NCBI GenBank assembly: GCA_049322955.1
Contig: JBMOPU010000012.1
Span: 147,581 to 211,580, forward strand
Origin: Patescibacteria group bacterium
GTDB lineage: Bacteria; Patescibacteriota; Microgenomatia; UBA10105; UBA927
Reading direction: 5' to 3'
DNA length: 64,000 nt
Shown here in pieces: positions 24,063 through 64,000 of this stretch (the stretch's first letter is position 1; every line of letters starts with the position of its first letter). A model generated the notes under the pieces. The model was not told where the DNA came from and did not search any database. It was given only the letters and a program-made list of their open reading frames with translations. Made by a program: the position numbers and the translations under genes.

Positions 24063-24071
24063 ATAGTGGAT

Positions 24072-26297: not shown

Positions 26298-26312
26298 CGA
26301 TAGCTTGCGAAA

Positions 26313-27374: not shown

Positions 27375-27378
27375 TGCT

Positions 27379-27651
27379 ATGAATAAAAAAATCGCGCTTG
27401 TCACCCTCATTGAAGCGAGTATCATCCTGTCGGATGAAGATAGGCTTATGTTGCTTGATTTGGTGCCAGGACTTACCGAAAAACAGGTGGATGCGCTGGG
27501 CAAGTTTTTCGCCCTGGAGCGCAAATTTGTTTTGAGCAATGAGGATGATGTAAAACAAAAGATTGAATCATTGCTTACCGGTCTGGATCGACAGGATACC
27601 GATACTGTGTATGTAGGGAGCGGGAATGCATTCGACCAAGGAACAAAATAA
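27379..27651 (+). CDS. small acidic partner protein S4
   Basis: A 90-aa protein starting 2 nt after the P4 stop. Its N-terminal LSDEDRLMLLDLV motif resembles those of the other small partners. Confidence 0.55.
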   Translation: MNKKIALVTLIEASIILSDEDRLMLLDLVPGLTEKQVDALGKFFALERKFVLSNEDDVKQKIESLLTGLDRQDTDTVYVGSGNAFDQGTK

Positions 27652-27699
27652 CATAAGAAGTTAACTATTACTTTGTCAGTTTATTCATGAGTCGTACCT

Positions 27700-28593: not shown

Positions 28594-28911
28594 ATGGATA
28601 TATCGATACAGCAATTTTGTGATCAGGTACTGCGAAGTCGGGCTCTTTCTCAGGAACAGAAAGAACTGCTCGTTGCCGATCCTGAAGCATTGCCGTCCTC
28701 ATACCGTGAGGAGGTTGCGGCCATTCTCTCGGCATTTGACGACCAATCGATGCAACGGGAGGAGTACCTACGAAATGCCGTGGAAGACCGTATGCGGCAG
28801 TTTGAAAAAAAACTTGAAGAAGAGGGGACTGATGCGCCGACGACGCATGCATTACTCAAAAAGGCAAAAGCGTTGAGTGCATCATTGTTTCCCGTAAAGC
28901 ACGTTGTTTGA
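28594..28911 (+). CDS. small acidic partner protein S5
   Basis: Its start abuts the P5 stop. It carries LSQEQKELLVADPEAL. Confidence 0.55.
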   Translation: MDISIQQFCDQVLRSRALSQEQKELLVADPEALPSSYREEVAAILSAFDDQSMQREEYLRNAVEDRMRQFEKKLEEEGTDAPTTHALLKKAKALSASLFPVKHVV

Positions 28912-28947
28912 CGGCGCAGGGAATCTCCTATACGCTAGAAGAAGAGT

Positions 28948-32211: not shown

Positions 32212-32284
32212 GGGCCCGAAGTTTACCTGGTTGAACGCTTCATTTGCAATGAAGAGGCAGGCGGTTCGACTCCGCCCGGGTCCA
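32212..32284 (+). tRNA. tRNA-Ala(UGC)
   Basis: A manually folded 73-nt cloverleaf: acceptor GGGCCCG/CGGGTCC with the G3:U70 Ala identity pair, anticodon loop TTTGCAA, T-loop GGTTCGACT, discriminator A. CCA is not encoded. Confidence 0.88.
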
Positions 32285-32349
32285 CCGATGTTCTTGTATC
32301 GGGAGTAGCTACATATATATGTATATACTCTCGCGACAAGAGCGCGAGT

Positions 32350-32362: not shown

Positions 32363-32529
32363 TATTGCCAAATGACTTCTTGTAAGACAGGTGAAATTCC
32401 TGCTCTACAAGAATTGAAAGTAATGAAGTAATGAGGTAGTTGCCGCGTAAGGGGGAGTGAATCCCACTTATCGTGGCCATTTTTAGTTGAGGGAACAAGG
32501 GTCGTCTTCGAGACGAATCTTTTGTTCTC

Positions 32530-35840
<3,311 letters not shown>

Positions 35841-35967
35841 GGAACAAAGGACGTTTTTTGCCGAGAGGCAAAAACACCTTGTTTCTCTTGGCGAAAATGA
35901 CACGAAAAGTCGGTCATTCTCCCTTATGTTGCAATTACCTTTATAATAAGAAAAGATTTTATCGTTG

Positions 35968-36086
35968 AGCCTTTCGGTCTCTTACGCGATGTGGTACCAC
36001 CCTTTCCCATTCCGAACAGGGAAGTGAAACACATTAGCGCCAACAATACTCGTTTCGCAAGGAACCTGGAAGATAGGTCGAGGCCG
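35968..36086 (+). rRNA. rrf: 5S ribosomal RNA (approximate ends)
   Basis: Conserved blocks CCCATTCCGAACAGGGAAGTGAAAC and TAGCGCCAACAATACT are present. The length is about 119 nt. Confidence 0.75.
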
Positions 36087-36113
36087 GGGGACTCAACGAT
36101 AAAACGGCAAATT

Positions 36114-44448: not shown

Positions 44449-45600
44449 ATGAAGGTGCTTTTTACGGTTACGTATTTTACCCCGTATGTGTCCGGTCTCA
44501 CGCTTGCCGTGCAACGATGGGCGGAAGGGCTGAGTCTTCTCGGTCATCAGGTGACGGTGCTTACCATGCGGCATGATCCGTCGTTACCCCGTACCGCGCG
44601 GCAGGGAGCACTTCATATCCGACGTGTCCCTTGGCTCATAAAAATCAGTAAGGGATTTCTTTCTCTAGTCTGGTGGAAAGAGGCGTGGGAGTTAAGTAAG
44701 CGCCATGATGTCGTGGTGGTCCATTTGCCTCAGCCTGAGGCAATCATCGTCGTCGTTGCGGCAAAGTTACTGGGCAAACGGATTGTCGCGGTGTATCACT
44801 GTGAAATATCGTTGCCTGCGGGATTTTTTTCCCAAATCATCCAATCGCTCATGGAAGTTTCCCATTTTGGGTGCATGATGCTTGCCGATAGCGTCGTTAC
44901 TTATACAACCGATTATGCAACGCACAGCCGACTTATCCGGTTGTGGGAACGATTCACGAAAAAACACATTACTGCAATCGTTCCGCCAATTCCTCTTTTT
45001 GCCGCTTCAAGACGCGACGTTGCCTCGTTTCGGAAAAAGATAGGATCGGCGGATATTGTTCTGGGTCTTGCCGCACGTATTGCCGCAGAAAAGGGCATAG
45101 AGTACTTACTCGCGGCACTGTCACGTATCGGGCGCGCCCATAAGGGAAAACGGGTCATTCTTGCCGTTGCAGGTCCGGTACCGGTCGGTGAAGGATTGTA
45201 CGGCAAGAAGATCTCATCGCTCGTCAAACAGTATGGCAACACGGTCATATTTTTGGGGAGCATTCCTCCGCACATGATGGCATCGTTTTATCGTTGCCTC
45301 GATATATTGGTATTGCCATCTATTAACGGCACGGAAAGCTTCGGTATGGTGCAAGTTGAGGCGATGCTCGCGGGTGTGCCCGTTATTGCCACTTCCTTGC
45401 CCGGCGTGCGGGTGCCGATTCAAAAAACCGGCATGGGTATTCTCATTCCGCCGAAAGATGAAACCGCAATTGCCGACGCGGTGACAGCACTTCTTCGGAA
45501 TCCGGCTTCTTACCGTCGGGAGCAAGCCGACATACGGCGGATTTTTTCCGAGGAAGAGAGTGTCCAGGCAATGGCGACCGTGGTTACAGGTTTATCATGA
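44449..45600 (+). CDS. family 4 glycosyltransferase (GT-B)
   Basis: The N-terminus MKVLFTVTYFTPYVSG and a C-terminal EX7E-type region. Confidence 0.82.
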   Translation: MKVLFTVTYFTPYVSGLTLAVQRWAEGLSLLGHQVTVLTMRHDPSLPRTARQGALHIRRVPWLIKISKGFLSLVWWKEAWELSKRHDVVVVHLPQPEAIIVVVAAKLLGKRIVAVYHCEISLPAGFFSQIIQSLMEVSHFGCMMLADSVVTYTTDYATHSRLIRLWERFTKKHITAIVPPIPLFAASRRDVASFRKKIGSADIVLGLAARIAAEKGIEYLLAALSRIGRAHKGKRVILAVAGPVPVGEGLYGKKISSLVKQYGNTVIFLGSIPPHMMASFYRCLDILVLPSINGTESFGMVQVEAMLAGVPVIATSLPGVRVPIQKTGMGILIPPKDETAIADAVTALLRNPASYRREQADIRRIFSEEESVQAMATVVTGLS

Positions 45601-47251
45601 TGCCGTACTTATCGGAAAAAGGGATATAGGTTGCCTCAGGATAGGTATCGGTAAAATCCTGTTTAAATTCTCCGGGGAGCGTCAGGATAATAACATACCG
45701 GCCGGGTATCTTTGACCGTAGAAAGTCCTGATGGTATTTCGTGGTGATCCCGGGTGCGGTGGTTTGGGGGAAAAACGGAAAGAAATATCCTAACGCAAAC
45801 GACGGAAACGCGGCTACATATATGGATCGTCCGGGATAATATGCGTTGACATGATGGATAATAGCCGCATCCTCAATCATTGCCTCTTCCTTGGTCGCCG
45901 TTTGCACATAATGAATATTGATGCCCGCATAGATCGCCAATGCGACCATCGCGATGAAAAACGGCACCCGTTTTTTCAGAGTAAGGAGGGCAAATGGTGA
46001 TGCGGATATTACGGCGATGAAGGGGAATGCGAGTGTCAGTCGATGATACGCGGGCGGAGGAATGGTGAGTACCATACCCGTGATATACGTCAACACAACG
46101 GTAAGCATAATCAGCCAAATTGCGATATGCCGAGACATTCTTATGAACAGAAACGCCGTGCCCCAGAGAAAAAACAGGAGTCCTACCGGCGGAAAAAATG
46201 CCTGCTGATGAAACGTATAGCCACCGTGTCCGCCGACCCCGTCCTTCACAAAAGATGAAAGCGAAAGAACGGTGTTATCCCATATGACTTTTCCCGTTTC
46301 CGACACCGTATGGCCGGCCGTTTTATACACGGACCAGGTGCCGTTGATAAGCGACACCTGTTGTATCCTTCCCGCAAAATAGTTTTCTTGTGTCAGTGCA
46401 TACGTCACAAACGGGGCGAGCACAACGATGACGCCGATAGTTATCCAGGTGATGATGCGGACGGGATGGGCCTTCCTGGCAAACAACGCGTGAATAACCG
46501 CGACAAGAAGGATGGGAAGAGCGATATACGAGGAAGGATACGACAGATAACACAGTCCTGCGGTGATTCCGGTCGTTACCAGACGAAAGCGCGTGTAGCG
46601 CTTTTGCAGACGCAGGAGAGAAACAAAAAAGAGCATATAAACCGCGGTGCTTGAGATAAAGTGCAGTCCCAGTGTTTCATGGTAGATGCTGATTGCCATA
46701 AAGGCATACAGGATAACCGCCGCAATACCGGCTATCCTGCCGAAAAGCGTGCGGGCGATAAGGTAAGTGCATACAGTGACCACGAAAATATACGGAAGTA
46801 CGGAGAGTTTAACCGTAAGGACACTGGCGCCCGTCATACTGAGGAAGAGTTTCTGGAACAGAAAATACGGAGTGGGAAATTTAGCCACCCACGCGTCTCC
46901 CGGGGGAATTCCCGAAAAGAAGTTGGTCGTGAGGGGATGATAATTTTGAGAAAAAGTAGCGGTTAACAGATCATCTCCGTGGATGCGGTCAGGCTGATAG
47001 AGGAGTACCCGTACCACGATCGGGAGGAACATGATGGCGAGAATAAACAGTCTTTTTTTCGTCAATTGCGGAAACGTCATTTTGGGTATCCTTGAGGGGA
47101 TTCCCGCGGTAAGAACGAGCAGAATTGCAAGTGCCCAAAGGAATACAAGCGGCAACGAGTACCGATTTGTCGCAATAAAAAAACACAGATACAGCGTCAC
47201 GGCTCCCGCAAGCAAGAGGGATGCAATGGTGTACGGCCGAGTATTACTCAT
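45584..47251 (-). CDS. large polytopic membrane protein, GT-C (ArnT/PMT)-like putative glycosyltransferase
   Basis: Thirteen or more hydrophobic helices. It is the last gene of a four-gene minus-strand operon. The start is trimmed to MSNTRPY, 4 nt after the upstream stop. Confidence 0.55.
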   Translation of the reverse strand: MSNTRPYTIASLLLAGAVTLYLCFFIATNRYSLPLVFLWALAILLVLTAGIPSRIPKMTFPQLTKKRLFILAIMFLPIVVRVLLYQPDRIHGDDLLTATFSQNYHPLTTNFFSGIPPGDAWVAKFPTPYFLFQKLFLSMTGASVLTVKLSVLPYIFVVTVCTYLIARTLFGRIAGIAAVILYAFMAISIYHETLGLHFISSTAVYMLFFVSLLRLQKRYTRFRLVTTGITAGLCYLSYPSSYIALPILLVAVIHALFARKAHPVRIITWITIGVIVVLAPFVTYALTQENYFAGRIQQVSLINGTWSVYKTAGHTVSETGKVIWDNTVLSLSSFVKDGVGGHGGYTFHQQAFFPPVGLLFFLWGTAFLFIRMSRHIAIWLIMLTVVLTYITGMVLTIPPPAYHRLTLAFPFIAVISASPFALLTLKKRVPFFIAMVALAIYAGINIHYVQTATKEEAMIEDAAIIHHVNAYYPGRSIYVAAFPSFALGYFFPFFPQTTAPGITTKYHQDFLRSKIPGRYVIILTLPGEFKQDFTDTYPEATYIPFSDKYGIMINL

Positions 47252-49031
47252 AGAGCAGGGGTAAAAGATCATTATATGAAATACGCCGGACATTTTTAAG
47301 AATAATAACTTTCGGATGATCATATACGGTGAACGTTTCATCGGCGTAATCGTCGATAACGGTTATCCCGGAGGAAGGACACTCTTCAATCGGGCGTGAT
47401 ACCGCACCATAGGAAAAAAATGGCATACGGAGGCACAACGGAGGGATGGGAAGGGGTATGGTAGGTCGCGAGGTGAATTGTTTGGCTACCGTGTAGCCGA
47501 GTTTTCCGGCAAGCAGATTTTCATAAAATCTACTGGTTTGCGGAAACCGATGTTTTGCCCGGAGTAGTGCTCCATAGGCACGATTACTGGAAAGGATGAG
47601 GTAATCCGAACGGGATAGTACATCGGCAATCTTGGGCATTTTTTCCTTGTCGTCAGGATCAAATGAAGGAAGCTGTATCTGTTGATATACGGAAGGGGAT
47701 AGTTCGCGCATGGGAAACGGAAGCGGATCATCCCAATGTTCCCATGCGATCGCACTTCCCCGGGGAAGTGTCGTATATATCCAAATATTTGCGGCTATCC
47801 GCGAGTGGGTGGTGGTATAGACCGAAAGGAATGCGGTCGGCCACGCAGACAGCGTGATTCCGAGGAGGAATATACCCCAAATACCTGCCGCTCCGGTATG
47901 GGGCAATGATCGGGATATCTTTTTTGCGATTCCGTACAGAAATAATCCGGAAAGCACAGCGAGAGAAGGATAGGCCGTCCAAACGTATCGCATCGGTTTT
48001 GCAAACTGCAATGACTGGTAGGTGAGGACAAGAATAATCCAGGCAATAATGATGCCGATTGCCGTTTTGTTTCTCCCCGAGAGTACGCGAAAAAGGAAAT
48101 AGCAAAATGCGCCGAGCGTGATACTGCCCAGAGGAATACCGAGTCCCCAAACTAGCAGATCCAACGGTACCTGCCATGGATGAACGCCGATCCACTGAAT
48201 ACCGGGTGGAAATCCCGTCGTCGGTCCATCAAAAGAGGCGAGTTGCTTCCAGTTGTTGATGACATCTTGGTTTATCGCCCAACCCGCGAATAGATACGGA
48301 TATGCGACCCGTACGGTCGCCATAAATCCGATAAAAAAACTACTTCCTTGGAGCAGGAGGCGGGAAAAGTGTTTTTTGGTATCAGTTCTCCAATGAAAGC
48401 CGGTGAATAACGCAATGACGCAAATCGGGAGGATAAGAACGGCGGAAATTTTTGCGCTTACGGCAAACCCCACGGCTATACCCGTCAGGATGTCCACTTT
48501 ATGGCGTATCAGGCGGTATAGGGCAATGGTAGTGAATGCGGTGACGTACGGATCAACCGTAAAAAAATGTGATAACTGTATGGGGATCACGGACACGGCG
48601 TAACAAAACCCGGCGAGAATGCCCGCCCAGATACTTTTGGTGAGGTGATAGGCAATAAGGATGACAAAAAATAGCGTGACAAGGTCGGCGGATGCAGACA
48701 GTAATCGGCCAACGATAGCAATGCCGTCATAGGTGGCGCGTCCGGAAAGGGTGGCAATAAGTTTAGTAAGATGCACGGGATAGGTGCCATAGACATAAAA
48801 GGAAAAATCCCTATTATGCGGATTGAGGGGAGAGGCTGACGTATCAAAATATTCGGCAACGGTACGCGGCCAGGATATATTCGTCGCTACCATGGTAAGA
48901 AACCGCTCGTCGGGGTGAAGGTGTGCCGACTGATCCCAATTGATACCCGTAAAGCGAAAAAAAGCGGCAAAAACCATCACTGCGATAGCAAAAAACTTCG
49001 CCGTTCCGGTTACTGTTTCAGTTTGTTTCAT
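47244..49031 (-). CDS. GT39/ArnT-like phospholipid-carrier-dependent glycosyltransferase
   Basis: A first-loop DE motif (HLHPDERFLTMVATNISWP) and many transmembrane helices. The start MKQTETV is 10 nt after the upstream stop. Confidence 0.65.
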   Translation of the reverse strand: MKQTETVTGTAKFFAIAVMVFAAFFRFTGINWDQSAHLHPDERFLTMVATNISWPRTVAEYFDTSASPLNPHNRDFSFYVYGTYPVHLTKLIATLSGRATYDGIAIVGRLLSASADLVTLFFVILIAYHLTKSIWAGILAGFCYAVSVIPIQLSHFFTVDPYVTAFTTIALYRLIRHKVDILTGIAVGFAVSAKISAVLILPICVIALFTGFHWRTDTKKHFSRLLLQGSSFFIGFMATVRVAYPYLFAGWAINQDVINNWKQLASFDGPTTGFPPGIQWIGVHPWQVPLDLLVWGLGIPLGSITLGAFCYFLFRVLSGRNKTAIGIIIAWIILVLTYQSLQFAKPMRYVWTAYPSLAVLSGLFLYGIAKKISRSLPHTGAAGIWGIFLLGITLSAWPTAFLSVYTTTHSRIAANIWIYTTLPRGSAIAWEHWDDPLPFPMRELSPSVYQQIQLPSFDPDDKEKMPKIADVLSRSDYLILSSNRAYGALLRAKHRFPQTSRFYENLLAGKLGYTVAKQFTSRPTIPLPIPPLCLRMPFFSYGAVSRPIEECPSSGITVIDDYADETFTVYDHPKVIILKNVRRISYNDLLPLLYE

Positions 49032-50697
49032 ATCGGCAAATATCCGCGGTTTTATAAAGTCTGAGATCCGTTTGCGCGTTGCGGTATGCATACGAAAGGG
49101 ATTGCCATAATTCCCGATTCGGGTGAAGGTATGACTCGGGTGCAGGGTTGACTTCCGCCCAGTGAACACCGTGCGAACGGAGTTCGTGACAGAGGTTTTG
49201 GATTGTTTTTGCTTCATATATGCGGATAAGTGACGCCTCCCGTACACCCTGGTCGTACCCATAGGACCACGTGAAGTACGTGTATCCCGAGTAGAGTGAT
49301 CGCCCGGCGATGCTCGCAGGGTGGTAAAACCAGGTGGTATTGGCGATCACATCGGTCACCTTTGTATTTGCGGCGATAAATGCCGCATCAGGATTAGCCG
49401 CAATATCAGGAACACTCCCGCTGGTGTCGTTTAAGACGGGGAACAAATCAATGACACCCGATAACGTGAGGAGCAAGACAAGAACCATACCGATGATGAG
49501 ACTTACGATGTGGCGAAGGAAGGGGAGTGTTCGGCTACGGATAACCCGAACCAGCCAGATAACCGCAGTGGCGGAAAACATATTGCCGAGTATAACGGCG
49601 AAGTTGAAAAACTTGTGGTTATTGATCATATCGGAGGAAAACCGGAAACAATTACCCAGAAGGAACAGCACCAATACCGGAGGAGCAAGCGTGCGTCTCG
49701 TTTCTTTCGGCGCTAAAAACATCCCCAGCGGCACAAGGAGCAGGTGAAGACCGATATTTCCCCCCCAAAATTGTAAAAAGGTACGAACCGTTAACGGGGC
49801 ACGCATAAGATATCCGGGTTCCCAGGTAATTACCGAGGTGACGTTCCCCAACAGCCGCACGATGCCGTACGTAACAAGACTTATTCCGAAGCTTATGAAT
49901 AATGCCGGCCGATGCGCTTTCCGCAAAAGGAATAGCCAACCCACAAAAAGCACCGCTATCCCCGTTACGGCAAAGTTAACCGTCATAAGGACGCTGATAA
50001 GGATGCCGAGCCAGACACCCCAGGTTTTGGTAAGTTTCGGTTTTTCATATAAGAGCAGGAGAATAAGGAGGAGGAGTCCGTAAGAAAGCGCGAGGTGGCG
50101 TTGATTGGTATAAATGTTGAGCGTCCAGAAGGCGGTGATGTTTCCGTTATCCCAGGGGCCGAAAACGGGGAATACGCTATTGGTCACAATATCCAAACCC
50201 GTAGAAGGGGACAGGGGATGGCGGGCAAAAAATGAAAGAAATCCGAGTGAGCCGTTGAAAAGAAAAAATATCACCGAAAGAAGCCCTATCCGAACCGATC
50301 GGAAGAGTTTTTTAGCCAGGTAATAAATGCAGAGGAGAAGAAGTGTCATCCCCACAGCACTCGGTATATTAAGTGCCTGATCAATACGAAACCCGATCTT
50401 TTCCAAAAGTCCGACGAATGCGTAAAAACCGAAGTGATAGCGGATCGGTTCTCCCGGATACAGCGGCGACTCTATGGGACGCAACGTCAATAATCTCTGA
50501 AAATTCGGTCCTTCGGAAAACGAACGAATAAGCGGGATGTGCGCGCCGAAATCGCTCCAAAGTTTTGAACCGATACGCATTTCGTTTCGCGATGCATCGT
50601 ATGAGAATCCGCGAGCCATGAGAACATAGGAAAACAAAAATGCCGCGAGCACGGCAAGAAAAAACACACCCCGTGACGACATGATGGTCTGTTTCAT
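49018..50697 (-). CDS. large polytopic membrane protein (GT-C-like)
   Basis: Twelve or more hydrophobic helices. The start MKQTIMSS is 4 nt after the oxidoreductase stop. Confidence 0.55.
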   Translation of the reverse strand: MKQTIMSSRGVFFLAVLAAFLFSYVLMARGFSYDASRNEMRIGSKLWSDFGAHIPLIRSFSEGPNFQRLLTLRPIESPLYPGEPIRYHFGFYAFVGLLEKIGFRIDQALNIPSAVGMTLLLLCIYYLAKKLFRSVRIGLLSVIFFLFNGSLGFLSFFARHPLSPSTGLDIVTNSVFPVFGPWDNGNITAFWTLNIYTNQRHLALSYGLLLLILLLLYEKPKLTKTWGVWLGILISVLMTVNFAVTGIAVLFVGWLFLLRKAHRPALFISFGISLVTYGIVRLLGNVTSVITWEPGYLMRAPLTVRTFLQFWGGNIGLHLLLVPLGMFLAPKETRRTLAPPVLVLFLLGNCFRFSSDMINNHKFFNFAVILGNMFSATAVIWLVRVIRSRTLPFLRHIVSLIIGMVLVLLLTLSGVIDLFPVLNDTSGSVPDIAANPDAAFIAANTKVTDVIANTTWFYHPASIAGRSLYSGYTYFTWSYGYDQGVREASLIRIYEAKTIQNLCHELRSHGVHWAEVNPAPESYLHPNRELWQSLSYAYRNAQTDLRLYKTADICRYETN

Positions 50698-50701
50698 ATT
50701 G

Positions 50702-51988
50702 TTACGCGTTTTCCGAAAGTATGGCGGTTGCCGCGGTAATCCCGAGTTCCACGGCATAGTTCGTCCCTCTGTCCCACGGCACCACGAAATCCATGTTGGC
50801 AAGGTAGGTATGGGGAACGGGTGTTTTGATAGGCGGAATACGTGTTGAATACCTCAATTCGTGCACCGGTTGGGCAAATGGGCCGACAAAAAGGAACGCA
50901 TCGGTGATTTTTACATTTCCCTCACTTTCGGCAAGTCTTCGTATATACGGCATAAATGTTTTGAGGAGTTCTTGTTTGGTGAAAGAAAGATACGGATGAC
51001 CCTGAGGGAGATAGTTTCCGAAATAGGTGAGATGTTTGCCTCCATAGTGCGACGCATCCATAAAATTGGTATGTGCGACCGCCGCAAGAAACGGATACGT
51101 CCGGTCATTTACATTCAGCCAATAGATATTTTTGAGGATCGGCCTTGTCGTCTCAACAATAAGTACCTGCGCATGGACGTGCGGAATCTCGGCAAGCCCG
51201 TTCGAATAGTTGCCGTTGAGCGCCGGCATGATGCGAAGCGCAAGGGGGGTTGGAACGGTAAGAAGGATGCGATCAAAGGTTTGTTTCCCATTTTTCCAGG
51301 TCAGCTCGATTGATCTGTCTTTTTTTTGCACGATTTTTTCAATCGGCGTGCCGGTTCTGATGACACCGCCCTGTGCCGTAATACGGTCCTGAAGCGCTTC
51401 GATAAGCGTATGAAACCCTCCGTCTATATAGCATAGCGACGGAGTGCGCTTCACTATCCTTGCCCAAAACCAGGAGGCGGCAATTTTTGGCGCATACATA
51501 TGAAATTTCCCATACATAAGAGGCTCCCAGAGCGTCTTCCAGGCATTTTTCCCACCGATTGCAATCAAAAGTTGTTCAGTACGAAAGCGCTCCAAGAGTC
51601 GCCAAAATGGAAAGAGTTTGAGAAATCCCAAGAGGATTGCGGTCCGAACTTTGTCGATCGGTGAAAGCCCCGGGAAGGTAAAAAGATTCACCGGGGAATC
51701 CAATTGATAGAATTTTTCGTGCCACATGGTGGATGTGATCGGGCGTTTGATGATGAGTTTGTCTTCAATGTCCAGTTCCTTGATAAGTCCGATGATGGCG
51801 CGATCGTTGGTGAAAAGATGATGGTATGCGCCTTCAATATGCCAGTCCCAGGTTTTCTTCCGAAACCCGTAGGCCAACCCGCCAAGTGTTGTTTCTTTTT
51901 CAAAGACGGTAACCGAATGTCCCGCTTTTGTAAGCTGATATGCCGCGGTGAGTCCGGTAAAACCGCCGCCGATTATTGCAATTTCCAT
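50702..51988 (-). CDS. FAD-dependent oxidoreductase (amine-oxidase/phytoene-desaturase-like Rossmann fold)
   Basis: An N-terminal dinucleotide-binding motif IAIIGGGFTGLTAAYQL...VFEK...GG. The start is set at MEIAII. Confidence 0.72.
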   Translation of the reverse strand: MEIAIIGGGFTGLTAAYQLTKAGHSVTVFEKETTLGGLAYGFRKKTWDWHIEGAYHHLFTNDRAIIGLIKELDIEDKLIIKRPITSTMWHEKFYQLDSPVNLFTFPGLSPIDKVRTAILLGFLKLFPFWRLLERFRTEQLLIAIGGKNAWKTLWEPLMYGKFHMYAPKIAASWFWARIVKRTPSLCYIDGGFHTLIEALQDRITAQGGVIRTGTPIEKIVQKKDRSIELTWKNGKQTFDRILLTVPTPLALRIMPALNGNYSNGLAEIPHVHAQVLIVETTRPILKNIYWLNVNDRTYPFLAAVAHTNFMDASHYGGKHLTYFGNYLPQGHPYLSFTKQELLKTFMPYIRRLAESEGNVKITDAFLFVGPFAQPVHELRYSTRIPPIKTPVPHTYLANMDFVVPWDRGTNYAVELGITAATAILSENA

Positions 51989-52058
51989 GTTTTCAATTGT
52001 ATCAAATAGGATTTTTCTTGCAGAACCGGATGTCGGTGCAGTATATAATGAATCCCAT

Positions 52059-54311
52059 ATGCCGCTTTTTGACGTCTTCCTTGTTTTGCGTTTTTGGGGT
52101 GCGATGTTTCTCATCGGTGCCGCGGCGTTTCCCGTCACCAAACTGTTATTTCCGCATTGGCATGACCGCGGGTATCTCTTTAGCAAGGCGGTGGGTCTGA
52201 GCATCGTCACCTGGATTGTCTATATCCTGGGCCTTTCCCGTCTGTTGGAGTTTCGCGTAGAAACGATATATGCGGCGATTTCTCTGGTCTTTGCGGCGGG
52301 TATCGTCGGAACGTATCAGATGGTGACCAAAGGTACGCAGAAGGAACGTCGGAGTCCGCTGGGAGTACGCATTGTCCTCTACGAGATGTTCTTTCTCGGT
52401 GCACTGTTGTTTTGGAGTTGGATCAAAGCACATGAACCGTCTATCCGTGGGCTTGAGAAATTCATGGACTACGGATTTATGCAATCCATACTAAACAGCA
52501 GATATTTCCCGCCTGCGGATATGTGGTTTCCGCCGTACCCCATTAACTACTACTACTTCGGTCACTTGGTAACGGCACTTTTGACGAAGCTTTCGGGCTT
52601 GGAGCTTGCCTACACCTTTAATATGATGCTTGCCGCCCTTTTTGCTTTCACCCTTACCATGAGTTTTTCCATCGGCTACCAGCTTATGGAAACTACCCCT
52701 GTTTTTGCGGCAAAGAGGCGGTTCGTTCCATGGGTGGGGGGCATTGTGACGGCATTTTTGGTCACGCTTGCCGGAAATATGCAGACTATTTATGCCTTCA
52801 CGAAAGGGTATACGGGGGAAGAGGTGAAACCGTTCTGGGAATTAGCATGGGGGGTAGGCGAGTTTTTTACGAAATATCAGGAAGGAATGCAACTGTATTG
52901 GTACGCCAACGCGACACGATTTATTCCCTACACAATCCATGAGTTTCCGAGTTATTCATTCGTGGTTTCCGATGTGCACGGTCATGTGCTCTCATTGCCG
53001 TTTGTGTTGCTTGCCATCGCATTGGTGCTTTCGCTGTTCGGGAGCGGGAGCGGTGTTTCTGTAAAACGGCCGCTGGGGAGCCTTATATTTTACGGTTTTT
53101 TGCTCGGGGTGTTACTCATGACCAACGCGCTTGACGGACCTATTTACGGCGCACTTTTTGTAGCCGCTCTTTTTCTAATTTGGGTTGTTAGGACGGGAAA
53201 AATAGATACTTTTGATGGCAAACGTTTTATTTTGGAATCCATGCTTGTCATAGCAAGTGCGGGGATAAGTAGTATGCCGTTTCTTGCGCATTTTAAATCG
53301 TTTGTGAACGGCATTGCCGTCAACTGTCCGAACGGGTTGGTTGCCAACAGTAAAATCGGCCCCTTACTTTTTGAGGGAGTAGAGAAGTGTCAACGAAGTG
53401 AGCTATGGATGTTCTGGTTGTTGTGGGGATTCTTTTTCTATGTTGCCGGCGCATTTTTGATTTCTCCTTTGCTCGGGGAAAAGCGAATAAAATCAGCAAA
53501 AAGCTTATTAAAACTTGATAAAATTCACTTGTTGAGAACAGGATTTACTCATGACGAGCAGGTGCTTGTTGTCTTTATTTTTCTCTCAGTACTCCTGCTT
53601 ATTTTCCCCGAATTCTTTTACTTTAAGGATATTTATCCGCAACACTTTCGCAGTAATACCATGTTTAAGTTAGGGTATCAGGCCTTTATCATGCTGAGCA
53701 TTGTCGCGGGCTACGGCATTTGCCGGTTTGCTTTTGCCGGCAGAGCAGAGCGATTACTTGCCCGGCAGAGGATTGCCCGAAAGCTCTTTTTCCTCCTGCT
53801 TATGCCACAACTTGTGCTCGTTTCCATTTATCCGCTTTTCTCGGTGCGAAGTTATTTCGGCGGACTTGCGCGGTATGAAGGGTTGTACGGAATGACATGG
53901 TTTGCGGGTGAGTATCCCGACGACTATCAGGCGGCATTGTGGTTAAGCCAGGCAATGCAAGGTCGTGACGGGGAAACAATCCTTGAAGCGGACGGTGATA
54001 GCTATACCGACTATCAGCGATTCTCGGTCTTTACCGGAAGACCGACGCCGATCGGATGGGCAGTCCATGAATGGTTATGGCGCGGGACCTATGATGTGGT
54101 ATCTCCGCGGCGAGAAGACGTCAAAACCCTTTACGAATCTACGGACCCGACACTTACTCGAGAACTCCTCAACGCGTACAGGATTGCCTATGTGGTGGTA
54201 GGAACGCTTGAACGACAAAAATATACGGCGATGGACGAAGCAAAATGGCTGACATTCGGTACCGAGGCGTTTCGCAGTAACAATACCGTCATTTACGAGA
54301 TAGCAAAGTAA
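52059..54311 (+). CDS. DUF2298 / Chlor_Arch_YYY-domain polytopic membrane protein
   Basis: The signature INYYYFGH sits in a roughly 750-aa hydrophobic protein. It is divergent from the glycosylation operon. The start is MPLFDVF. Confidence 0.68.
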   Translation: MPLFDVFLVLRFWGAMFLIGAAAFPVTKLLFPHWHDRGYLFSKAVGLSIVTWIVYILGLSRLLEFRVETIYAAISLVFAAGIVGTYQMVTKGTQKERRSPLGVRIVLYEMFFLGALLFWSWIKAHEPSIRGLEKFMDYGFMQSILNSRYFPPADMWFPPYPINYYYFGHLVTALLTKLSGLELAYTFNMMLAALFAFTLTMSFSIGYQLMETTPVFAAKRRFVPWVGGIVTAFLVTLAGNMQTIYAFTKGYTGEEVKPFWELAWGVGEFFTKYQEGMQLYWYANATRFIPYTIHEFPSYSFVVSDVHGHVLSLPFVLLAIALVLSLFGSGSGVSVKRPLGSLIFYGFLLGVLLMTNALDGPIYGALFVAALFLIWVVRTGKIDTFDGKRFILESMLVIASAGISSMPFLAHFKSFVNGIAVNCPNGLVANSKIGPLLFEGVEKCQRSELWMFWLLWGFFFYVAGAFLISPLLGEKRIKSAKSLLKLDKIHLLRTGFTHDEQVLVVFIFLSVLLLIFPEFFYFKDIYPQHFRSNTMFKLGYQAFIMLSIVAGYGICRFAFAGRAERLLARQRIARKLFFLLLMPQLVLVSIYPLFSVRSYFGGLARYEGLYGMTWFAGEYPDDYQAALWLSQAMQGRDGETILEADGDSYTDYQRFSVFTGRPTPIGWAVHEWLWRGTYDVVSPRREDVKTLYESTDPTLTRELLNAYRIAYVVVGTLERQKYTAMDEAKWLTFGTEAFRSNNTVIYEIAK

Positions 54312-57821: not shown

Positions 57822-58037
57822 TTACTCTGATTCCACCTGCACACCTGCAACGGTGGGAACGCTTCCCGATTGGGTATTGAGATAGGTACCAACCACGGCA
57901 CCCAGCCCCAACATCAGGGCAAACATCACGAGCAACATCCAGCTTCGTACAACGACCAGATAGCCTTCCTTCACCCGCGGTGCACGGACTGCTTTATTGA
58001 CACGATGCGCTTTGCGCGAAACGATTTTTTTCTTCAT
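57822..58037 (-). CDS. hypothetical small tail-anchored membrane protein
   Basis: A 72-aa protein with a basic N-terminus (MKKKIVSRKAHRVNKAVRAPR) and one C-terminal hydrophobic helix. Confidence 0.4.
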   Translation of the reverse strand: MKKKIVSRKAHRVNKAVRAPRVKEGYLVVVRSWMLLVMFALMLGLGAVVGTYLNTQSGSVPTVAGVQVESE

Positions 58038-58365
58038 AGGATATGGTTTTAGTTTGGGGAGAAAAAAAGCATTTGTCAATACCCAAACCAGGCTATTGAC
58101 ACCATATATGATATCTCATCATAGTAATAATAGACACCCGGTGGAAATCGACGTCGTGATGCATACCATGGCGTCGGGTTAGGGACATCGGGTGGCTCTT
58201 TGATGCAACGTGGGTTTATTTAACAAACGGAATCTTGACAGCACTATTTCTTCTTCTGCCCGCCGGGATGTGTCATTAGCCACCAAGCTGTTCCACTTTT
58301 TTATAGATTGTCATAGACAGAGAAAATGGTCTCATTTTTATGAGACAAACGGATTCGCCCAAATA

Positions 58366-61300
58366 TTGCCGCTGGTGCTGTTGATGTTGTTTGCGGGAAG
58401 CACATTTTTCATCATTGCCAGAGTCCAAAAAGAACGAACCGGCGAAATCCGGCAATTTGCGCAAAGCGGCGCGTATGCGTCGCCGACCGCCAAGACCACG
58501 GCAACGCCGAAAGTCACGCCATCCGTCACGATTTCTCCGACTCCCAAACCTGATCCGTGCCGATATCTGACCGGTACCGCACTTTCTTCCTGCAGAAGCG
58601 TCAATCCCTTGCCGTCGGCAACCCGTACGCCGACGAAATCTCCGACACCGACAAAAACGGTAACCCCCGTAGTGACGACGCGGGTATATACCAGCATGAC
58701 GGCGAGTGAATGTAGCGGGAGGCGCGGCACCTATAATCCGACTACGAGGACCTGTACGATATCGGTGACGCCCATTCCCACGATTAAGGTCAATTCGTCC
58801 TCATCGCAGTTGGTGTACGTGCTCAACAAGCAGACCGGCGGGTGTTCTCCACGGTTAGGAAGTGCCGTAAAATCTACTGATGAAACATATCAGAGTAGTG
58901 CATTGTGTGTCACCGCATCATGGAATCAGGGTATCGCCCAGGGAGCCGCCTCACCAAAAGCGAATACAACTATTCCGCCAAAACTCGCTTCCGGACAATC
59001 GTCGGGTGCTCCGGTGCCCCCTCCGGGAACCGGCATCGGGGTAGGGGCGGGAGTCGGTTTTGAAATTCCCATCACCTTTACGGCATCAGTCGTCAATTGG
59101 TTCCAGAATACTTTTGGGAAAGGAACCACGCCGACTCCGTCGCCGCTTGCTACAGGAACCACCCCCCGCGTAACGCCGAAGCCGACCATCGCACCGGGAC
59201 AAGATTGCTTTCCTAACTGTAAAGAACTATGTCAATATGGATCGAGTGGCATCTTTGGATGGGCGAAATGCGATGCAAAACCGACCGATACACCGAAGCC
59301 GGTTGCCAAATCCGGCACAACGCCGACGGTTACTCCAAAGCCGACGCTCAAGCCGGGTGCCGACTGTACGATTTGGGGTGGAGAAAACGGTTGCGGCAAT
59401 TGCCCGGGTGGGAAGTGGAAACCGGGGCTCAATGCCGTTTGTGAGTCTGCCGCTCCGGCATCGACGCCTCCCAAAACCCCCGCGACCACCGTAACCACGG
59501 CACCGGTTGCCGCGGTCGTACAACCGACGGTTACTCCGATTATTCCGACCGTGACGATTAAACCCGCCTCAACAATCACGCCATCGCCGAGTGCCAAGCC
59601 GAAGCCGAAGGTTTCGTGCGGCGGGGCAGGGGATGTTCCCATCAGTGAGGGAAGTGTGGCGACGGGCGAACAATACGGACCGGCGACGGCAATGAATGAT
59701 AATCAGCGATGGCGATGTGTCCCTGATCCCAAGAATCCGAATGTAGGGAAATGGGAGCAGTGTCCCGGCTGTCCGCTTACCGTTATTTCTTCCAGTGCGA
59801 ATCTTGCTGAGGAGTATAAAAAGGAATCGGCGGCGTTTGCCGAAACGGTCAATAAAATGGCCGCCGATGTCTATGCCTGCGGAACCTCGGCTTCCTGTAA
59901 AAATGAGGTCTATGCCAAATACGGCGTAAGCGCAGAGTCCCAGGCTTACCAGGACATGGCGAAGAACCAGGTGACGGAACAGGTGAAACTCTATCAAAGT
60001 CAGGATACCTATTTTGAGAACCGCGAAAAATGGGATCTGTGTAAGGCTCAGCAGGCAAATGATGCGAATTGTGAAGGCTACATCCAAGCGGCGAATAACG
60101 CGCTCGCCGCCGCAGGACTTGATCCCGTCGCGACCGCCGCCCAACTCGAATTAACCTATCACAACTATGTGGTGAACAAGGCATCCAGTCTTTACCTCAT
60201 GGCCGAAAGCGCGTACGCGTCATGCGTGGAGGATAAAAAAACAAATTCCGGTCTTGATTGTTCAGGGCTCCAAAAAAATGCCGCCGCCGCCTTAGCGTAC
60301 CCCGGGACTACGGCGGCTGACCAGGCATCTATATCCAAGTTATACAAAGATTATAAAACAGCATCAGATTATGTGTATCAGTCCAATCAGGAAATCTGCG
60401 GTACGTGTACCCCGGCGCAAGCCAACGCCTTACGTCAACAACATCTTGCGGCATCAGGACTTTCCGATTCCTATCAGGCGGGATTGTTGGAGGGGTGGCA
60501 ATCACAAATCGTGAACCTGGTGAAGGGGAACGGTCCCGGGAGCGAAATGGCAATCTGTAAAGAAGTGATAGGGACGTCGGCGTGTAATAGTTTGGAATCC
60601 GCCCGAACCGCCCTCAAAGGCGCGGTATCACTTGCTCAGCAGACCGAATTACAGGCACGTTTCGCCCAAAACGATGTTGCAGTCACCAGTGGGACGGGTT
60701 CTATTGCCATGGGAAATCCCGGAAGTGCCTATGCCGATGCGCTGTCCGCATACAAGGCGGAACAAATCAAAGGAGGGGATTATGCCGACCGGATCAAAAC
60801 CGAGGAACAATGGGAAAAAGAATTCGATGCCTATCAGCAAGGCATATGGGAAGAACTAAAGCCTATTTATGCCGCGCAAGGGAAAGACGCATTGATCGAA
60901 GCGAAAATCGCACAGGGACTGCTGGTTCCGTCGGAAATAAAAGAGGAGTATTTCAGCACGTACCCGCAGTGGGTGTACGACATGCAACCGGGATGGGAGA
61001 ATTTTTGGAACAGCGTTAAAAAACCGTTTGTTTCCGAAAACTCTGATATTGCGAAATACCAGGCACAGGGACAGACAGAAATGTTATCGCTTAATCCGGC
61101 AAATCAGGCCGCCGTATTTGCACAGGTCAACTCCTCCGATGCCTATAAAGATTGGCTCAAGACCGCGGAAATTGATAAAACCATCCCTCCGGAAGAGCAA
61201 TTTATCGAGCATCAACTGGAGCTGTTTTACGGCAATAAAGCCTATCTTGATATCGCCAAAGGGAACTATGAGCCGGGAACGGAGAGTGAGCGGATTTTCT

Positions 61301-64000
61301 TTCAGCAGGTCATTACCGGGGATGTCGATATGACCAAAATTGATAATGATCTGAGCAACCCCCTTGCAAAACCCATGTTGCTTGCCCTTAACGTGGCGCA
61401 GAAGGCGGCGCCTATCATTACCTTCGGGCTTGTCGACAACCTCACACCGAACCTTACGAACATGCAGAGTGCCGCAACCGCGGAAAATGTCATCACCTAT
61501 GCAGAGAAAGTAAATCCCGAGCTTATCACGACCCGGGTGAACATGATTAAAACAGATGCGGAAGAAAGTGCCGCCTATGAAGCGTGGAAAGCTACCCAAA
61601 AGACAGGGAGCGACACCTCGGAAAAAGCCTATCTTACCGATCTGTATGCCCAGGCGGTGGCGACAACCGTCAATGCAAAACTCGGTGAGTATGAACTCGA
61701 CGGCGCGGCGGAATTTTTTGCCACCAATCCCGATTGGTTAACCAATAGTGTGCTCAATGGTACCGATGGACTCAATACCTTTTACCAAAATCTTGAAGAA
61801 TCCAAGGCAAAACAGGATGCCGCTTATGCGGAATTCCTAAAGGACAACAGCCAAGATCGGGCGGAGACATATACCCAAAAACTTGAAACCATTGCAAACG
61901 AACAGGCTGAGTTATTCACCGATGTCCTGACAAAAAGCATCACCGATGAACAGAAGGTTGAGCTTGCCGCAAAATTGGACACCAAAGGGATCAATCAGTC
62001 TGCCGATGACTATATTCATGACCAAGTGAATGCGTACCTGAAGAGCTCGGATGTGCGGGCATTTTTGGCATCGGGCGGCATCGAATCATCGATTGACTCG
62101 GTCATAAACGGCGACTTTAATGCCGTTGCGGCACAAAACGCCTATAACGGTTTATCCGACGGCGATAAGTTTTTGGTTTCGTTAAACGCCTTCACCGACG
62201 GCAAAAAACTGGAGTCGGTCATCGAACAGGGACAACTTAAACAGCAATACCAAAACGGTGAAATCAACTGGGGTGAGTATGCGGCGCGGACCGCGTGGGC
62301 GGAAGTCAAGGGAGATGCTAAGGTGGTAGGCACGGCACTTGCACTTGCGGCGCCACCGCTTCGTGTTGCTCAGCTTGGCGCGGCGGCATTTACGGTTCCC
62401 TCGGTGTTAAGTATCACGGGAGAAGCGCTCGGGTTTCAGATGACCGGCACGAGTTTGGCCGATACCGCAACCAACTGTACTTTCCGCGAAGATCAGAATG
62501 ATGCCGCATGTTTAACAAGTGCAGGGATGACTGCCTTTGCGGCATGGAGTACCGCTTCATCAATAAGCGGGCTCAATCAGGCGGCACGGGCATCTCAGCT
62601 TAATCGGCTGAGCTTGATCGCTCCTAAAGAAACGGCACTGGTAAAGGTATCGCAAATAACTAACGGCACGGAAGCAATCACCACCCAACTTGTTGACGAC
62701 GCGACGACCTCCGTTGCCAAAGCATTCACTCCAAAGGCTCCCAATGTCATCGCCGAACGGGCACGGAACGCGTTGGGAACCGTCGTGTTCGGATCGCAGG
62801 CGGCACAAACCTGTTCGCAGACAGGGTTTAATGCCGATTGTATTCTCTCGATGAGTATGGCGGGAGTATCGCTGGCGCGTACCGTTATGCCGGCAACCGC
62901 GATAGTGAACCCCACCACACAGGCATCGCAAGCGGTGGTGCGAACCGATCAGGTGGTCAACGGGTTACAGGCATTGACCGCCTGTTCCGCCGCCGCCACC
63001 GGTCAGGCAAAATGGGATAACTGTGTGACGACCGCCATGATGGCGGGGATGTCGTTTGGTCCTGATCTTGCCAAGCAATCCACCGAGGGACCCTCGACAT
63101 TCACCAACCCTTTTGAGGCAAAACAATTGGCGCTCGGCGATTTGCAACTTATTGACGGGCTCAAAAACTATACCAACCTTGATACCGTAACGCTTTCTGA
63201 CGGACAGACGGTGAAATTCGCCGATCAGGCGACCGCCCGCACCCAGGTGTTGCAAACCTTGGGGAGAGCGGTTGTCGAGTCAGGGAGGGCGTTATCGCAG
63301 ACGCAATTTGCGGTAAGCGAGATTCTTGCCGACAGAACGATTCCTAAAGATGTCGCAGAACAATCGTTTGCACAGCGGCAACTTCTCCAGGCCGCCGATA
63401 CCTGGAATAAAATGGTCAACCCCGACGGATCAATAAAAAGCACGATTGAAGTTGACGGCGTGGTCAAACCCATCACCTCGGAGATGATAGACGGTGCAAG
63501 AAAAAGCATTGATATCGCACAACAACAGGTGCAGGTAGAACAAGCACTCATGGAAAATCCGCGCACGCCCATGCAACAGCTTGGTGACTCCATTGCCAAA
63601 GCACTCAATCGTGAAGCGACGCAAATTAAGGACTTTGAGGCGGCACAACAGCGATTTGCGGAAGCGGCAAAGGCCGCAGACACCAATCCGGTTGAATACG
63701 AAGTCGCCAGGCAGGCACTTGAAAAGGCCAAAACGGGGATTGAACGCATGGGATATACCCGTGCGCAAGCCGAGTATGCCAGCGATCTTGATGCCGCCCG
63801 TGAAGCGCTGACCAAAGCGCAGGATGACGCGGGGATAATAAAAATCCGCGTAGAACTTTTGCAGGAACCGGATCTTATTGTCGAAGCATTGACGAGACAG
63901 GCGCAGGTTGTCAATGATGCAGGACAACAGCTTGCTGATCTGCTGGCGGCAAAAGCGAGCCCCGAGGCAATTAAGGTTGCCCAGGACGGACTTGCGAGAT
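58366..64000 (+). CDS. giant secreted/surface protein (partial; more than 1,870 codons; continues beyond the window end)
   Basis: One frame is open from the stop at 58201-58203 to base 64000 with no stop. An N-terminal signal-anchor-like helix (LPLVLLMLFAGSTFFIIA) is followed by Thr/Pro-rich linkers (TPKVTPS, TPKPT repeats), several Cys-rich modules (DCFPNCKELCQYG; DCTIWGGENGCGNCPGGKW), and a long helical Ala/Gln/Glu-rich region. The start is uncertain (TTG 58366, GTG 58375 or ATG 58384). It is not in the supplied ORF list. Confidence 0.8.
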   Translation, partial: MPLVLLMLFAGSTFFIIARVQKERTGEIRQFAQSGAYASPTAKTTATPKVTPSVTISPTPKPDPCRYLTGTALSSCRSVNPLPSATRTPTKSPTPTKTVTPVVTTRVYTSMTASECSGRRGTYNPTTRTCTISVTPIPTIKVNSSSSQLVYVLNKQTGGCSPRLGSAVKSTDETYQSSALCVTASWNQGIAQGAASPKANTTIPPKLASGQSSGAPVPPPGTGIGVGAGVGFEIPITFTASVVNWFQNTFGKGTTPTPSPLATGTTPRVTPKPTIAPGQDCFPNCKELCQYGSSGIFGWAKCDAKPTDTPKPVAKSGTTPTVTPKPTLKPGADCTIWGGENGCGNCPGGKWKPGLNAVCESAAPASTPPKTPATTVTTAPVAAVVQPTVTPIIPTVTIKPASTITPSPSAKPKPKVSCGGAGDVPISEGSVATGEQYGPATAMNDNQRWRCVPDPKNPNVGKWEQCPGCPLTVISSSANLAEEYKKESAAFAETVNKMAADVYACGTSASCKNEVYAKYGVSAESQAYQDMAKNQVTEQVKLYQSQDTYFENREKWDLCKAQQANDANCEGYIQAANNALAAAGLDPVATAAQLELTYHNYVVNKASSLYLMAESAYASCVEDKKTNSGLDCSGLQKNAAAALAYPGTTAADQASISKLYKDYKTASDYVYQSNQEICGTCTPAQANALRQQHLAASGLSDSYQAGLLEGWQSQIVNLVKGNGPGSEMAICKEVIGTSACNSLESARTALKGAVSLAQQTELQARFAQNDVAVTSGTGSIAMGNPGSAYADALSAYKAEQIKGGDYADRIKTEEQWEKEFDAYQQGIWEELKPIYAAQGKDALIEAKIAQGLLVPSEIKEEYFSTYPQWVYDMQPGWENFWNSVKKPFVSENSDIAKYQAQGQTEMLSLNPANQAAVFAQVNSSDAYKDWLKTAEIDKTIPPEEQFIEHQLELFYGNKAYLDIAKGNYEPGTESERIFFQQVITGDVDMTKIDNDLSNPLAKPMLLALNVAQKAAPIITFGLVDNLTPNLTNMQSAATAENVITYAEKVNPELITTRVNMIKTDAEESAAYEAWKATQKTGSDTSEKAYLTDLYAQAVATTVNAKLGEYELDGAAEFFATNPDWLTNSVLNGTDGLNTFYQNLEESKAKQDAAYAEFLKDNSQDRAETYTQKLETIANEQAELFTDVLTKSITDEQKVELAAKLDTKGINQSADDYIHDQVNAYLKSSDVRAFLASGGIESSIDSVINGDFNAVAAQNAYNGLSDGDKFLVSLNAFTDGKKLESVIEQGQLKQQYQNGEINWGEYAARTAWAEVKGDAKVVGTALALAAPPLRVAQLGAAAFTVPSVLSITGEALGFQMTGTSLADTATNCTFREDQNDAACLTSAGMTAFAAWSTASSISGLNQAARASQLNRLSLIAPKETALVKVSQITNGTEAITTQLVDDATTSVAKAFTPKAPNVIAERARNALGTVVFGSQAAQTCSQTGFNADCILSMSMAGVSLARTVMPATAIVNPTTQASQAVVRTDQVVNGLQALTACSAAATGQAKWDNCVTTAMMAGMSFGPDLAKQSTEGPSTFTNPFEAKQLALGDLQLIDGLKNYTNLDTVTLSDGQTVKFADQATARTQVLQTLGRAVVESGRALSQTQFAVSEILADRTIPKDVAEQSFAQRQLLQAADTWNKMVNPDGSIKSTIEVDGVVKPITSEMIDGARKSIDIAQQQVQVEQALMENPRTPMQQLGDSIAKALNREATQIKDFEAAQQRFAEAAKAADTNPVEYEVARQALEKAKTGIERMGYTRAQAEYASDLDAAREALTKAQDDAGIIKIRVELLQEPDLIVEALTRQAQVVNDAGQQLADLLAAKASPEAIKVAQDGLAR

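Follow-up and report, generated by a model that had tools for sequence, protein, structure and literature searches.

The 3′ end of a 64,000-nucleotide (nt) stretch of the genome of a Patescibacteria group bacterium (positions 147,581 to 211,580 of contig JBMOPU010000012.1, assembly GCA_049322955.1; hereafter the window) is occupied by one plus-strand reading frame that is still open at the last base, raising the question of whether this frame belongs to a real gene and, if so, what kind of protein it encodes. The initial annotation proposed a giant secreted modular protein, missing from the supplied list of open reading frames (ORFs) and possibly an adhesin or host-interaction factor. After the computational analysis described below, the best explanation as a whole is a membrane-anchored giant protein of Microgenomates with a role as a surface tether, to which we assign a probability of about 60%. 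Its parts differ in strength, and the part that concerns us first, the presence of a real giant gene with the anatomy described here, is close to certain.

Re-translation of positions 58201-64000 identified TGA at 58201-58203, followed by 1,932 sense codons without any stop up to base 64000, in agreement with the uninterrupted frame originally proposed for 58204-64000. With about 3 stops per 64 codons, the chance of such a stop-free frame is, by our own arithmetic, approximately (61/64)^1932, or about 1e-40. The giant ORF is missing from the ORF lists because ORFs continuing past the end of the source sequence are skipped by the lister. Public assemblies of the same species were located by exact look-up of two neighbouring proteins, and the 5,790 nt of the window ORF were recovered in six independent Logan assemblies with 0-12 substitutions and an undisrupted frame; one of these sequences (L006, SRR32167788_6211) is identical to the window over the 5,790 nt. 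The window ORF contains no tandem repeats, and this finding, together with the presence of the same sequence in six assemblies, disposes of the suspicion that the region might be a mis-assembled repeat. The gene is far larger than the part visible in the window: it is called at 13,602 amino acids (aa) in four assemblies (L002, L003, L007 and L009) and at 13,322 aa in L006, where it lies inside its contig, and the two values therefore represent a length polymorphism. The alleles that differ by these 280 aa (L006 versus the other four) are at about 0.2% nucleotide divergence. When counted from the start codon proposed below (GTG at 58210, taken as aa 1 for residue numbering), the total becomes about 13,787 aa, or about 13,507 aa in the L006-type strain. 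The gene thus covers about 41 kb, of which the window part (58210-64000) represents the N-terminal 1,930 codons, about 14% of the product.

The frame is also open for 3,900-5,500 aa in five other species. Since relatives retain the protein sequence of the plus frame (28-72% identity), the minus-strand ORFs listed in this interval can be regarded as shadow ORFs, as had been assumed. In one relative (L001, ENA ERZ21828318; 71% identical), 1,837 aa are followed by an in-frame TAG (15512-15514) and then by 10,323 aa in the same frame. A sister groundwater metagenome-assembled genome (MAG; L015) carries CAG at this codon (~5105-5107) with the frame open for 3,928 aa, and the window sequence also reads through the position; the TAG may be either a strain-specific nonsense mutation or an error. 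In L014 (GCA_023382895.1) the frame runs for 5,459 aa to a scaffold gap and then for 1,110 aa to the contig end. A chance frame, a mis-assembly or a decaying pseudogene might be suspected from this in-frame TAG, and from the fact that gene callers disagree on the start and put a minus-strand gene over the 5′ end. Such an artefact is, however, extremely improbable in view of the 5.8 kb free of stops in six independent assemblies, the public calls of 40-41 kb in five, the long open frames in five other species, and the protein-like conservation with invariant Cys and without repeats.

Public gene calls start at a GTG corresponding to window position 58765, which is too late, and the public protein is thus devoid of the membrane anchor. 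The public callers in addition place a false 119-aa minus-strand gene at about 58340-58699, where the true 5′ part of the giant gene lies. The in-frame GTG at 58210 is, as judged from sequence comparison, the probable translation start, because this GTG is conserved, the frame upstream of the membrane helix (aa 52-70) is open and protein-like, a distant homologue carries a comparable tail, and a promoter-like site and a hairpin are conserved in the leader. By DNA alignment of the related loci, the GTG is kept in L001, L014, L016 and L020, and TTG is found at or near its position in L017, L019 and L021. In 8 species, 51 or more codons ahead of the helix are free of stops in the giant frame, as against 1-9 stops in the other two frames; in a three-species DNA alignment, all length differences between the GTG and the helix are multiples of three, and the substitutions in this stretch are protein-like, e.g., SA[RH]RD and FFIDC[HY]. 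The distant homologue (P0013) starts with ATG and has a 48-aa Arg/Lys-rich tail ahead of the same helix. A frameshift or sequencing error at the 5′ end, which the initial annotation had suspected on account of an out-of-frame ATG at 58340, is not supported: the upstream frame is open in the 8 species and GTG 58210 is conserved, and the ATG, although present in the window, is not conserved in relatives.

As to the leader, TTGACA (TTGACT in L021), the 18-nt spacer and CATAGT are common to all eight related loci; this promoter-like site could also serve the small gene transcribed divergently from it. The leader hairpin has a stem of 9 pairs, of which 2 show compensatory changes, and a loop that varies between 16 and 48 nt across the 7 species aligned; by direct reading, its 3′ arm sits 13-15 nt ahead of the proposed start codon. 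No Rfam match at gathering score was found for the leader (58096-58209). Within the coding sequence, the codons for FFIDC[HY], an 18-nt block TTTTTTATAGATTGT(C/T)AT at 58297-58314, are almost devoid of synonymous changes in 8 species, whereas the coding sequence flanking it is strongly diverged in the same species. This invariance suggests an additional constraint at the level of RNA or DNA. The block holds the heptamer U UUU UUA with a UAG next to it in another frame. In view of the invariance, programmed -1 frameshifting on U UUU UUA UAG (58296-58305) was considered; it was rejected for this window, as the frame that would feed it is closed by a stop 8 codons upstream and lacks a start codon. 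A minor alternative is that the block represents an internal extended -10 promoter, used together with a start at TTG 58366.

The anatomy of the window part is summarized in Table 1. The signal-anchor-like helix that had been pointed out is indeed one strongly hydrophobic helix: it is the sole segment scoring 1.5 or lower on the Hessa scale in the first 3,276 aa, and it is conserved in all homologues. In the juxtamembrane motif that follows, R, Q, R, G, E, R, F and A are invariant across 5 species, and the motif is also present in L017, L019 and L021. The Thr/Pro linkers and small Cys modules of the initial annotation are present by composition. The Thr/Pro/Ser-rich stretches are located at aa 88-166, 301-331, 358-382 and 437-466, and the small modules are marked by Cys 117/128, 168/182, 212/233, 333/337/341/354 and 386/395/398/411, positions that are kept in P0001 and P0002. 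For the four-Cys module next to them, invariant columns were identified in three alignments (A1, A3 and A5), and AlphaFold2 predicts short strands with a predicted local distance difference test score (pLDDT) below 62. Domain searches on the Cys modules, which had been suggested, gave no Pfam or NCBIfam match, and the whole window part (the first 1,930 aa) has no Pfam, NCBIfam or PDB sequence match.

Table 1. Features of the giant gene and of its 5′ flank, in order along the window.
Feature	Position	Strand	Evidence or remark
71-aa membrane protein, divergently transcribed neighbour	57822..58037	-	same position and orientation in 8/8 loci, 58-84% identity
Promoter-like site TTGACA-N18-CATAGT	58096..58125	+	scan match 10/12
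Leader hairpin, arms CACCCGGTG (58135-58143) and CATCGGGTG (58187-58195)	58135..58195	+	RNAalifold, 7 species
Basic N-terminal tail, aa 1-51, probably cytoplasmic; FFIDC[HY] motif at 58297-58314	58210..58362	+	
Transmembrane signal-anchor helix (predicted) ILPLVLLMLFAGSTFFIIA, aa 52-70	58363..58419	+	Hessa-scale sum -1.4 over 19 residues
Juxtamembrane motif RVQKERTGEIRQFAQ, family signature ARxQxERxGELRQFA	58420..58464	+	
Thr/Pro/Ser-rich linkers alternating with small Cys modules	58471..59607	+	composition, Cys positions
Most conserved small module, four Cys (470, 503, 518, 521)	59617..59799	+	motifs VATGEQYG, WEQCPGCPLT
Five helical hairpins, Cys pair at each turn	59800..60654	+	Cys 557/563, 611/621, 672/684, 730/733, 783/792
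Cys-free helical region, aa 816-1347	60655..62250	+	composition; 71% identical to P0001
Family-wide conserved core, three Cys-loop hairpins (Cys 1423/1434, 1535/1544, 1592/1605)	62251..63126	+	
Ala/Gln/Glu-rich coiled-coil-like segment, runs out of the window towards the P-loop domain	63127..64000	+	composition

More than 1,300 aa of the window product are helical by AlphaFold2, in good agreement with the long helical region seen at the outset. The Cys pairs of the five-hairpin array recur about every 56 aa, and this array is predicted with pLDDT 80-90; AlphaFold2 models the first 185 residues of the Cys-free region after it as helices. The 34 Cys that follow the membrane helix are all in close pairs, and those covered by alignments are largely conserved, being invariant across 3-5 species of A1 and A3. 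The core, which is the region most often matched in the search of 1.84 billion representatives described below, is all-helical in the AlphaFold2 model (pLDDT 61.6), with seven long helices plus two short low-confidence ones in a linker; among 12 sequences, with identities as low as 24%, four of its Cys never vary and two hardly do. A Foldseek search of this model gave G-protein-coupled receptors as top matches with probability 0.9, but with E 0.03 and a TM-score of 0.26-0.3, and no fold match was accepted. The core was also considered as a seven-transmembrane domain and rejected as not hydrophobic enough, its best 19-mers scoring 4.8-13 against -1.4 for the real helix. After aa 1605, no Cys is found for 1,671 aa in the window species and for 3,400 aa in L001; against 0.58% Cys in the other genes of the window, the probability of such a Cys desert is 6e-5 and 3e-9, respectively.

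The paired conserved Cys, the later exclusion of Cys, the Thr/Pro linkers and the basic tail suggest an uncleaved anchor with a large part outside the cell, and likewise a stiff helical stalk paired by disulfides. We propose that the helix at aa 52-70 would function as a signal anchor that is not cleaved and leaves the N terminus in the cytoplasm, and that the Thr/Pro linkers would serve as extended spacers crossing the cell envelope. The linkers might be O-glycosylated, possibly by the GT-C/PMT-type enzymes encoded upstream (45584-54311). These glycosyltransferase genes are also the sole pointer to the giant protein being a substrate of an upstream cluster, a possibility raised in the initial annotation. 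Disulfides between the paired Cys would give stiffness to a long helical stalk on the surface of the cell, and this fast-evolving stalk could tether the cell to, or sense, another cell, as proposed for the giant proteins of other ultra-small bacteria. For this last step, the role in surface tethering or host contact, we judge the odds to be about even.

The distribution of the family and its rate of evolution bear on this role. Three relatives were found in a database of 5.8 billion proteins, 24 relatives (mostly fragments) in an exhaustive search of 1.84 billion representatives, and 7 loci in a scan of 185,579 species represented by one genome each; the named relatives belong to the Microgenomates, i.e., Candidatus Gottesmanbacteria and Woesebacteria, and the bacterium of the window is taken to be Gottesmanbacteria-like. 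The searchable literature on giant proteins in the candidate phyla radiation (CPR), Patescibacteria or Gottesmanbacteria yielded no description of the present family. The giant gene is accompanied by genes for DUF2298, Rho, an M23 peptidase and the 71-aa membrane protein, together with tRNAs, and the order DUF2298, Rho, LysM/M23 peptidase, 71-aa membrane protein (divergent) and giant gene is kept in those loci whose sequence reaches sufficiently far upstream, L014 and L021 ending too early. Identities are 76-93% for the M23 neighbour but 28-71% for the N-terminus of the giant protein in the same loci, indicating that the giant gene evolves much faster than its neighbours. This fast evolution, together with the lifestyle of such bacteria, suggests contact with other cells. 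The proposal of a surface or host-interaction factor of ultra-small bacteria therefore fits in part, namely with the CPR genome and the fast evolution, whereas the term adhesin is still conjecture and the protein is not simply secreted. The 71-aa neighbour, which has a basic N terminus and one membrane helix but no Pfam or NCBIfam match, may be a partner of the giant protein. Three of the related loci (L017, L019 and L021; CAZNKB010000003.1, CAYSAP010000002.1 and CAYIXE010000002.1) are titled 'uncultured Gammaproteobacteria bacterium' and carry a CPR-type locus with the same gene order; these labels look wrong.

What lies beyond the window adds modules of another kind. About 190 aa past the window end (in L002) there is a DEAD/ResIII-like P-loop domain, which matches Pfam DEAD with 27.9 bits against a cutoff of 26, and also ResIII. 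Its Walker A (APGGAGKTETS) and Walker B (IVDEVKT) motifs are invariant in three species, so that both the Walker motifs and the Pfam score are those of a superfamily 2 helicase-like P-loop domain. Since neither a second RecA domain nor a helicase C-terminal domain was detected in the P-loop region, helicase activity is not implied. A SecA-like P-loop domain was rejected after no SecA family was found in Pfam even at E up to 10, and none in a PDB profile search. A local resemblance of IVDEVKTIWQPALSFQVSG to a SecA motif was noted by eye only. Further downstream, L001 carries a Trp-rich hydrophobic region, an HEYTH motif (HExxH) and an FHA domain (4.9e-12), L014 gives a weak match to a HopA1-effector-like domain (25 bits against a cutoff of 22.7), and in P0017 a methyltransferase-like motif was recognized by direct reading in place of the P-loop domain. 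The next membrane helix after aa 52-70 appears at about aa 4,000 in relatives. To describe the giant protein simply as a secreted adhesin is thus an incomplete reading, as it carries a P-loop NTPase-like domain, HExxH, FHA and further membrane segments.

Several of these observations weigh against a membrane-anchored protein with its large part outside the cell. With one membrane helix before about aa 4,000 and a core too polar to provide a second span, the conserved P-loop NTPase is predicted to lie outside the cell, without nucleoside triphosphates (NTP). The membrane helix has basic residues on both flanks, and its orientation is not certain. As to the start, GTG 58210 is without a good Shine-Dalgarno sequence, and TTG 58366 offers an alternative, the equivalent TTG being the called start in L014. 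In addition, about 75% of the giant protein lies outside the sequence examined. The search for domains covered the window part together with 3,333 aa of the L001 continuation, 6,560 aa of L014 and, from L017 and L021, 4,100 aa each. The topology paradox could be escaped in three ways, ranked here as rivals: a missed membrane crossing, delivery into a host, or a cytoplasmic protein without disulfides.

In the cytoplasmic explanation, translation would start at TTG 58366, the helix would insert with a short N terminus outside, and the protein would be mainly a cytoplasmic scaffold or NTPase machine, the Cys pairs not being disulfides. This explanation would place the P-loop and FHA domains where such domains normally work, and it agrees with the basic residues RVQKERTGEIR after the helix, with the start called in L014 and with the absence of a cleavable signal peptide. 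It is nevertheless distinctly unlikely, for in 8 species an open, protein-like frame reaches 51 codons or more beyond the helix on its 5′ side, and in P0013 a basic tail starting with ATG precedes the helix. Exported proteins are typically marked by Thr/Pro linkers and by Cys that are strictly paired and invariant, metal binding would take more than the two Cys of one hairpin turn, and an exclusion of Cys from 3,400 aa is unexpected for cytoplasmic proteins of this organism.

Delivery into a host would make of it a multi-effector protein resembling MARTX or polymorphic toxins, in which the stalk and core bind or breach a neighbour cell and the Cys-free part is passed in. The strongly conserved P-loop motifs, predicted to share one side of the membrane with the putative disulfide modules, would be accounted for in this way, as would the Cys desert of 1,670-3,400 aa, the downstream modules that vary from DEAD-like/HExxH/FHA (L001) to HopA1-like (L014) and methyltransferase-like (P0017), and the fast protein evolution. 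MARTX toxins are likewise very large, Cys-poor single polypeptides, in which structural parts flank variable enzyme-like modules; the present protein differs from them in being three times larger and N-terminally anchored, and this anchor suggests retention on the producer cell. Translocation repeats, an autoprocessing protease and a toxin domain were not detected, with no Pfam match to RTX/glycine-rich repeats or a cysteine protease domain in the window part, L001 or L014. The HopA1 match is weak, and no secretion system is encoded next to the giant gene, type I secretion genes included. We therefore consider delivery unlikely. A more specific form of it, with about 3,900 residues outside the producer and the Cys-free part delivering working NTPase, protease-like and FHA modules into the host, is rather more doubtful; if true, the protein would be a single-polypeptide, surface-anchored effector-delivery device of a new kind, its disulfide-paired stalk holding the cells together.

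The product might also be a polyprotein that is cut into several smaller proteins, an arrangement compatible with any of the others. Unrelated types of module joined by long linkers, the HExxH motif downstream and the one strain that is intact except for an in-frame stop would be in line with such processing, which has been proposed for other giant proteins (10.1101/2023.11.21.568195). A processing protease such as C39 or S8 was, however, not detected in the parts examined, nor was a cleavage-site pattern identified there, and we regard a polyprotein as quite improbable.

Among known systems, the surface-anchored protein proposed here most closely resembles the large proteins of Omnitrophota. 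Large or giant proteins that exceed 10,000 aa and combine membrane segments with a DEAD-type domain are reported for Omnitrophota and other ultra-small, predatory or episymbiotic bacteria, 'large' standing for 10,000 aa or more and 'giant' for 30,000 aa or more (West-Roberts et al. 2023; 10.1101/2023.11.21.568195). With 13,602 or 13,322 aa, the present protein falls into the 'large' class and below the 30,000-aa class. As in the Omnitrophota proteins, the N-terminus is without identifiable domains, a divergent DEAD-type P-loop domain is internal, membrane segments are present, most of the sequence is invisible to hidden Markov model searches, and the host is small-genomed and probably dependent on other cells. 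The Omnitrophota proteins pose the same puzzle of cytoplasmic-type domains predicted outside the cell (10.1101/2023.11.21.568195). In contrast, no sequence relationship to them was found, the P-loop domain matches Pfam DEAD/ResIII and not SecA_DEAD, and only one membrane helix was identified in the first ~4,000 aa. Of the numerous transmembrane regions that mark the Omnitrophota proteins, the sequence examined shows this helix, the next one at about aa 4,000 in relatives and the Trp-rich hydrophobic region of L001, about 75% of the protein being unread. Cys-paired helical hairpins and a long Cys desert are not described for the Omnitrophota proteins. The archaeovorin/dockerin-type domain sets (glycosyl transferases/hydrolases, methylases and NUDIX; dockerin and thrombospondin-3) were not found in the parts examined. 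Giant genes in CPR bacteria are not reported in the Omnitrophota giant-protein paper (10.1101/2023.11.21.568195). The Omnitrophota-type large proteins are the closest known kind, but the present family is a separate one.

A stalk of the proposed type also has a counterpart on cells without an outer membrane. Ebh of Staphylococcus aureus, of about 10,000 aa, forms a long rod of membrane-tied helical bundles on such a cell; its signal peptide is cleaved, it is anchored at the C terminus, and it contains FIVAR/GA repeats in many near-identical copies. The present protein is likewise a membrane-tied, largely helical giant, but differs in its uncleaved N-terminal anchor, the absence of sequence repeats and of Pfam repeat matches, the Cys-paired hairpins and the enzyme-like modules downstream. 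It does not conform to an LPXTG/MSCRAMM-type adhesin, the anchor being uncleaved (Ile at -3) and the first 1,930 aa giving no Pfam adhesin or repeat match. In Actinobacteria, Thr/Pro-rich exported proteins are O-mannosylated by Pmt, and the present locus resembles this system in having Thr/Pro linkers after a membrane segment and PMT-family GT-C genes nearby (45584-49262; DUF2298 at 51948-54311). This likeness bears on the linkers only, and the co-location of PMT genes may reflect a gene order shared by close relatives.

CPR genomes are about 1 Mb in size, and a 41-kb gene would take roughly 4% of the coding capacity. Given that its position is kept across the clade and that it evolves fast, the giant gene is a prime candidate for a molecule of host attachment or exploitation, which is the central open question for these uncultured bacteria. 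Since gene callers mis-annotate the family and MAG assemblies fragment the gene, too few members will be counted in surveys. Testable hypotheses on topology and delivery arise from the clear-cut Cys pattern and from the seemingly misplaced NTPase domain.

Other parts of the window carry features of their own. Upstream of the giant gene, large membrane proteins are encoded on both strands, i.e., PMT_2 (weak; 45584-47341), PMT (47244-49262) and DUF2298 (51948-54311), and the same run includes a 594-aa ORF without assignment (49018-50802) and an amine-oxidase-like gene (50702-52210). Between 21111 and 31903, ORFs without Pfam match surround a 743-aa protein with an ABC-ATPase domain (24066-26297); this protein and the three ORFs after it (26313-29934) contain zero Cys, and the Cys-less cluster (24066-29934) may represent another exported set. 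The 23S rRNA gene at 32527-35844 carries a group I intron at 35193-35543 (RF00028, 58 bits) and is adjoined by 5S rRNA (35973-36089) and tRNA-Ala(TGC) (32212-32286), with no 16S rRNA beside them; a 23S rRNA gene with a group I intron and without adjacent 16S is typical of CPR bacteria.

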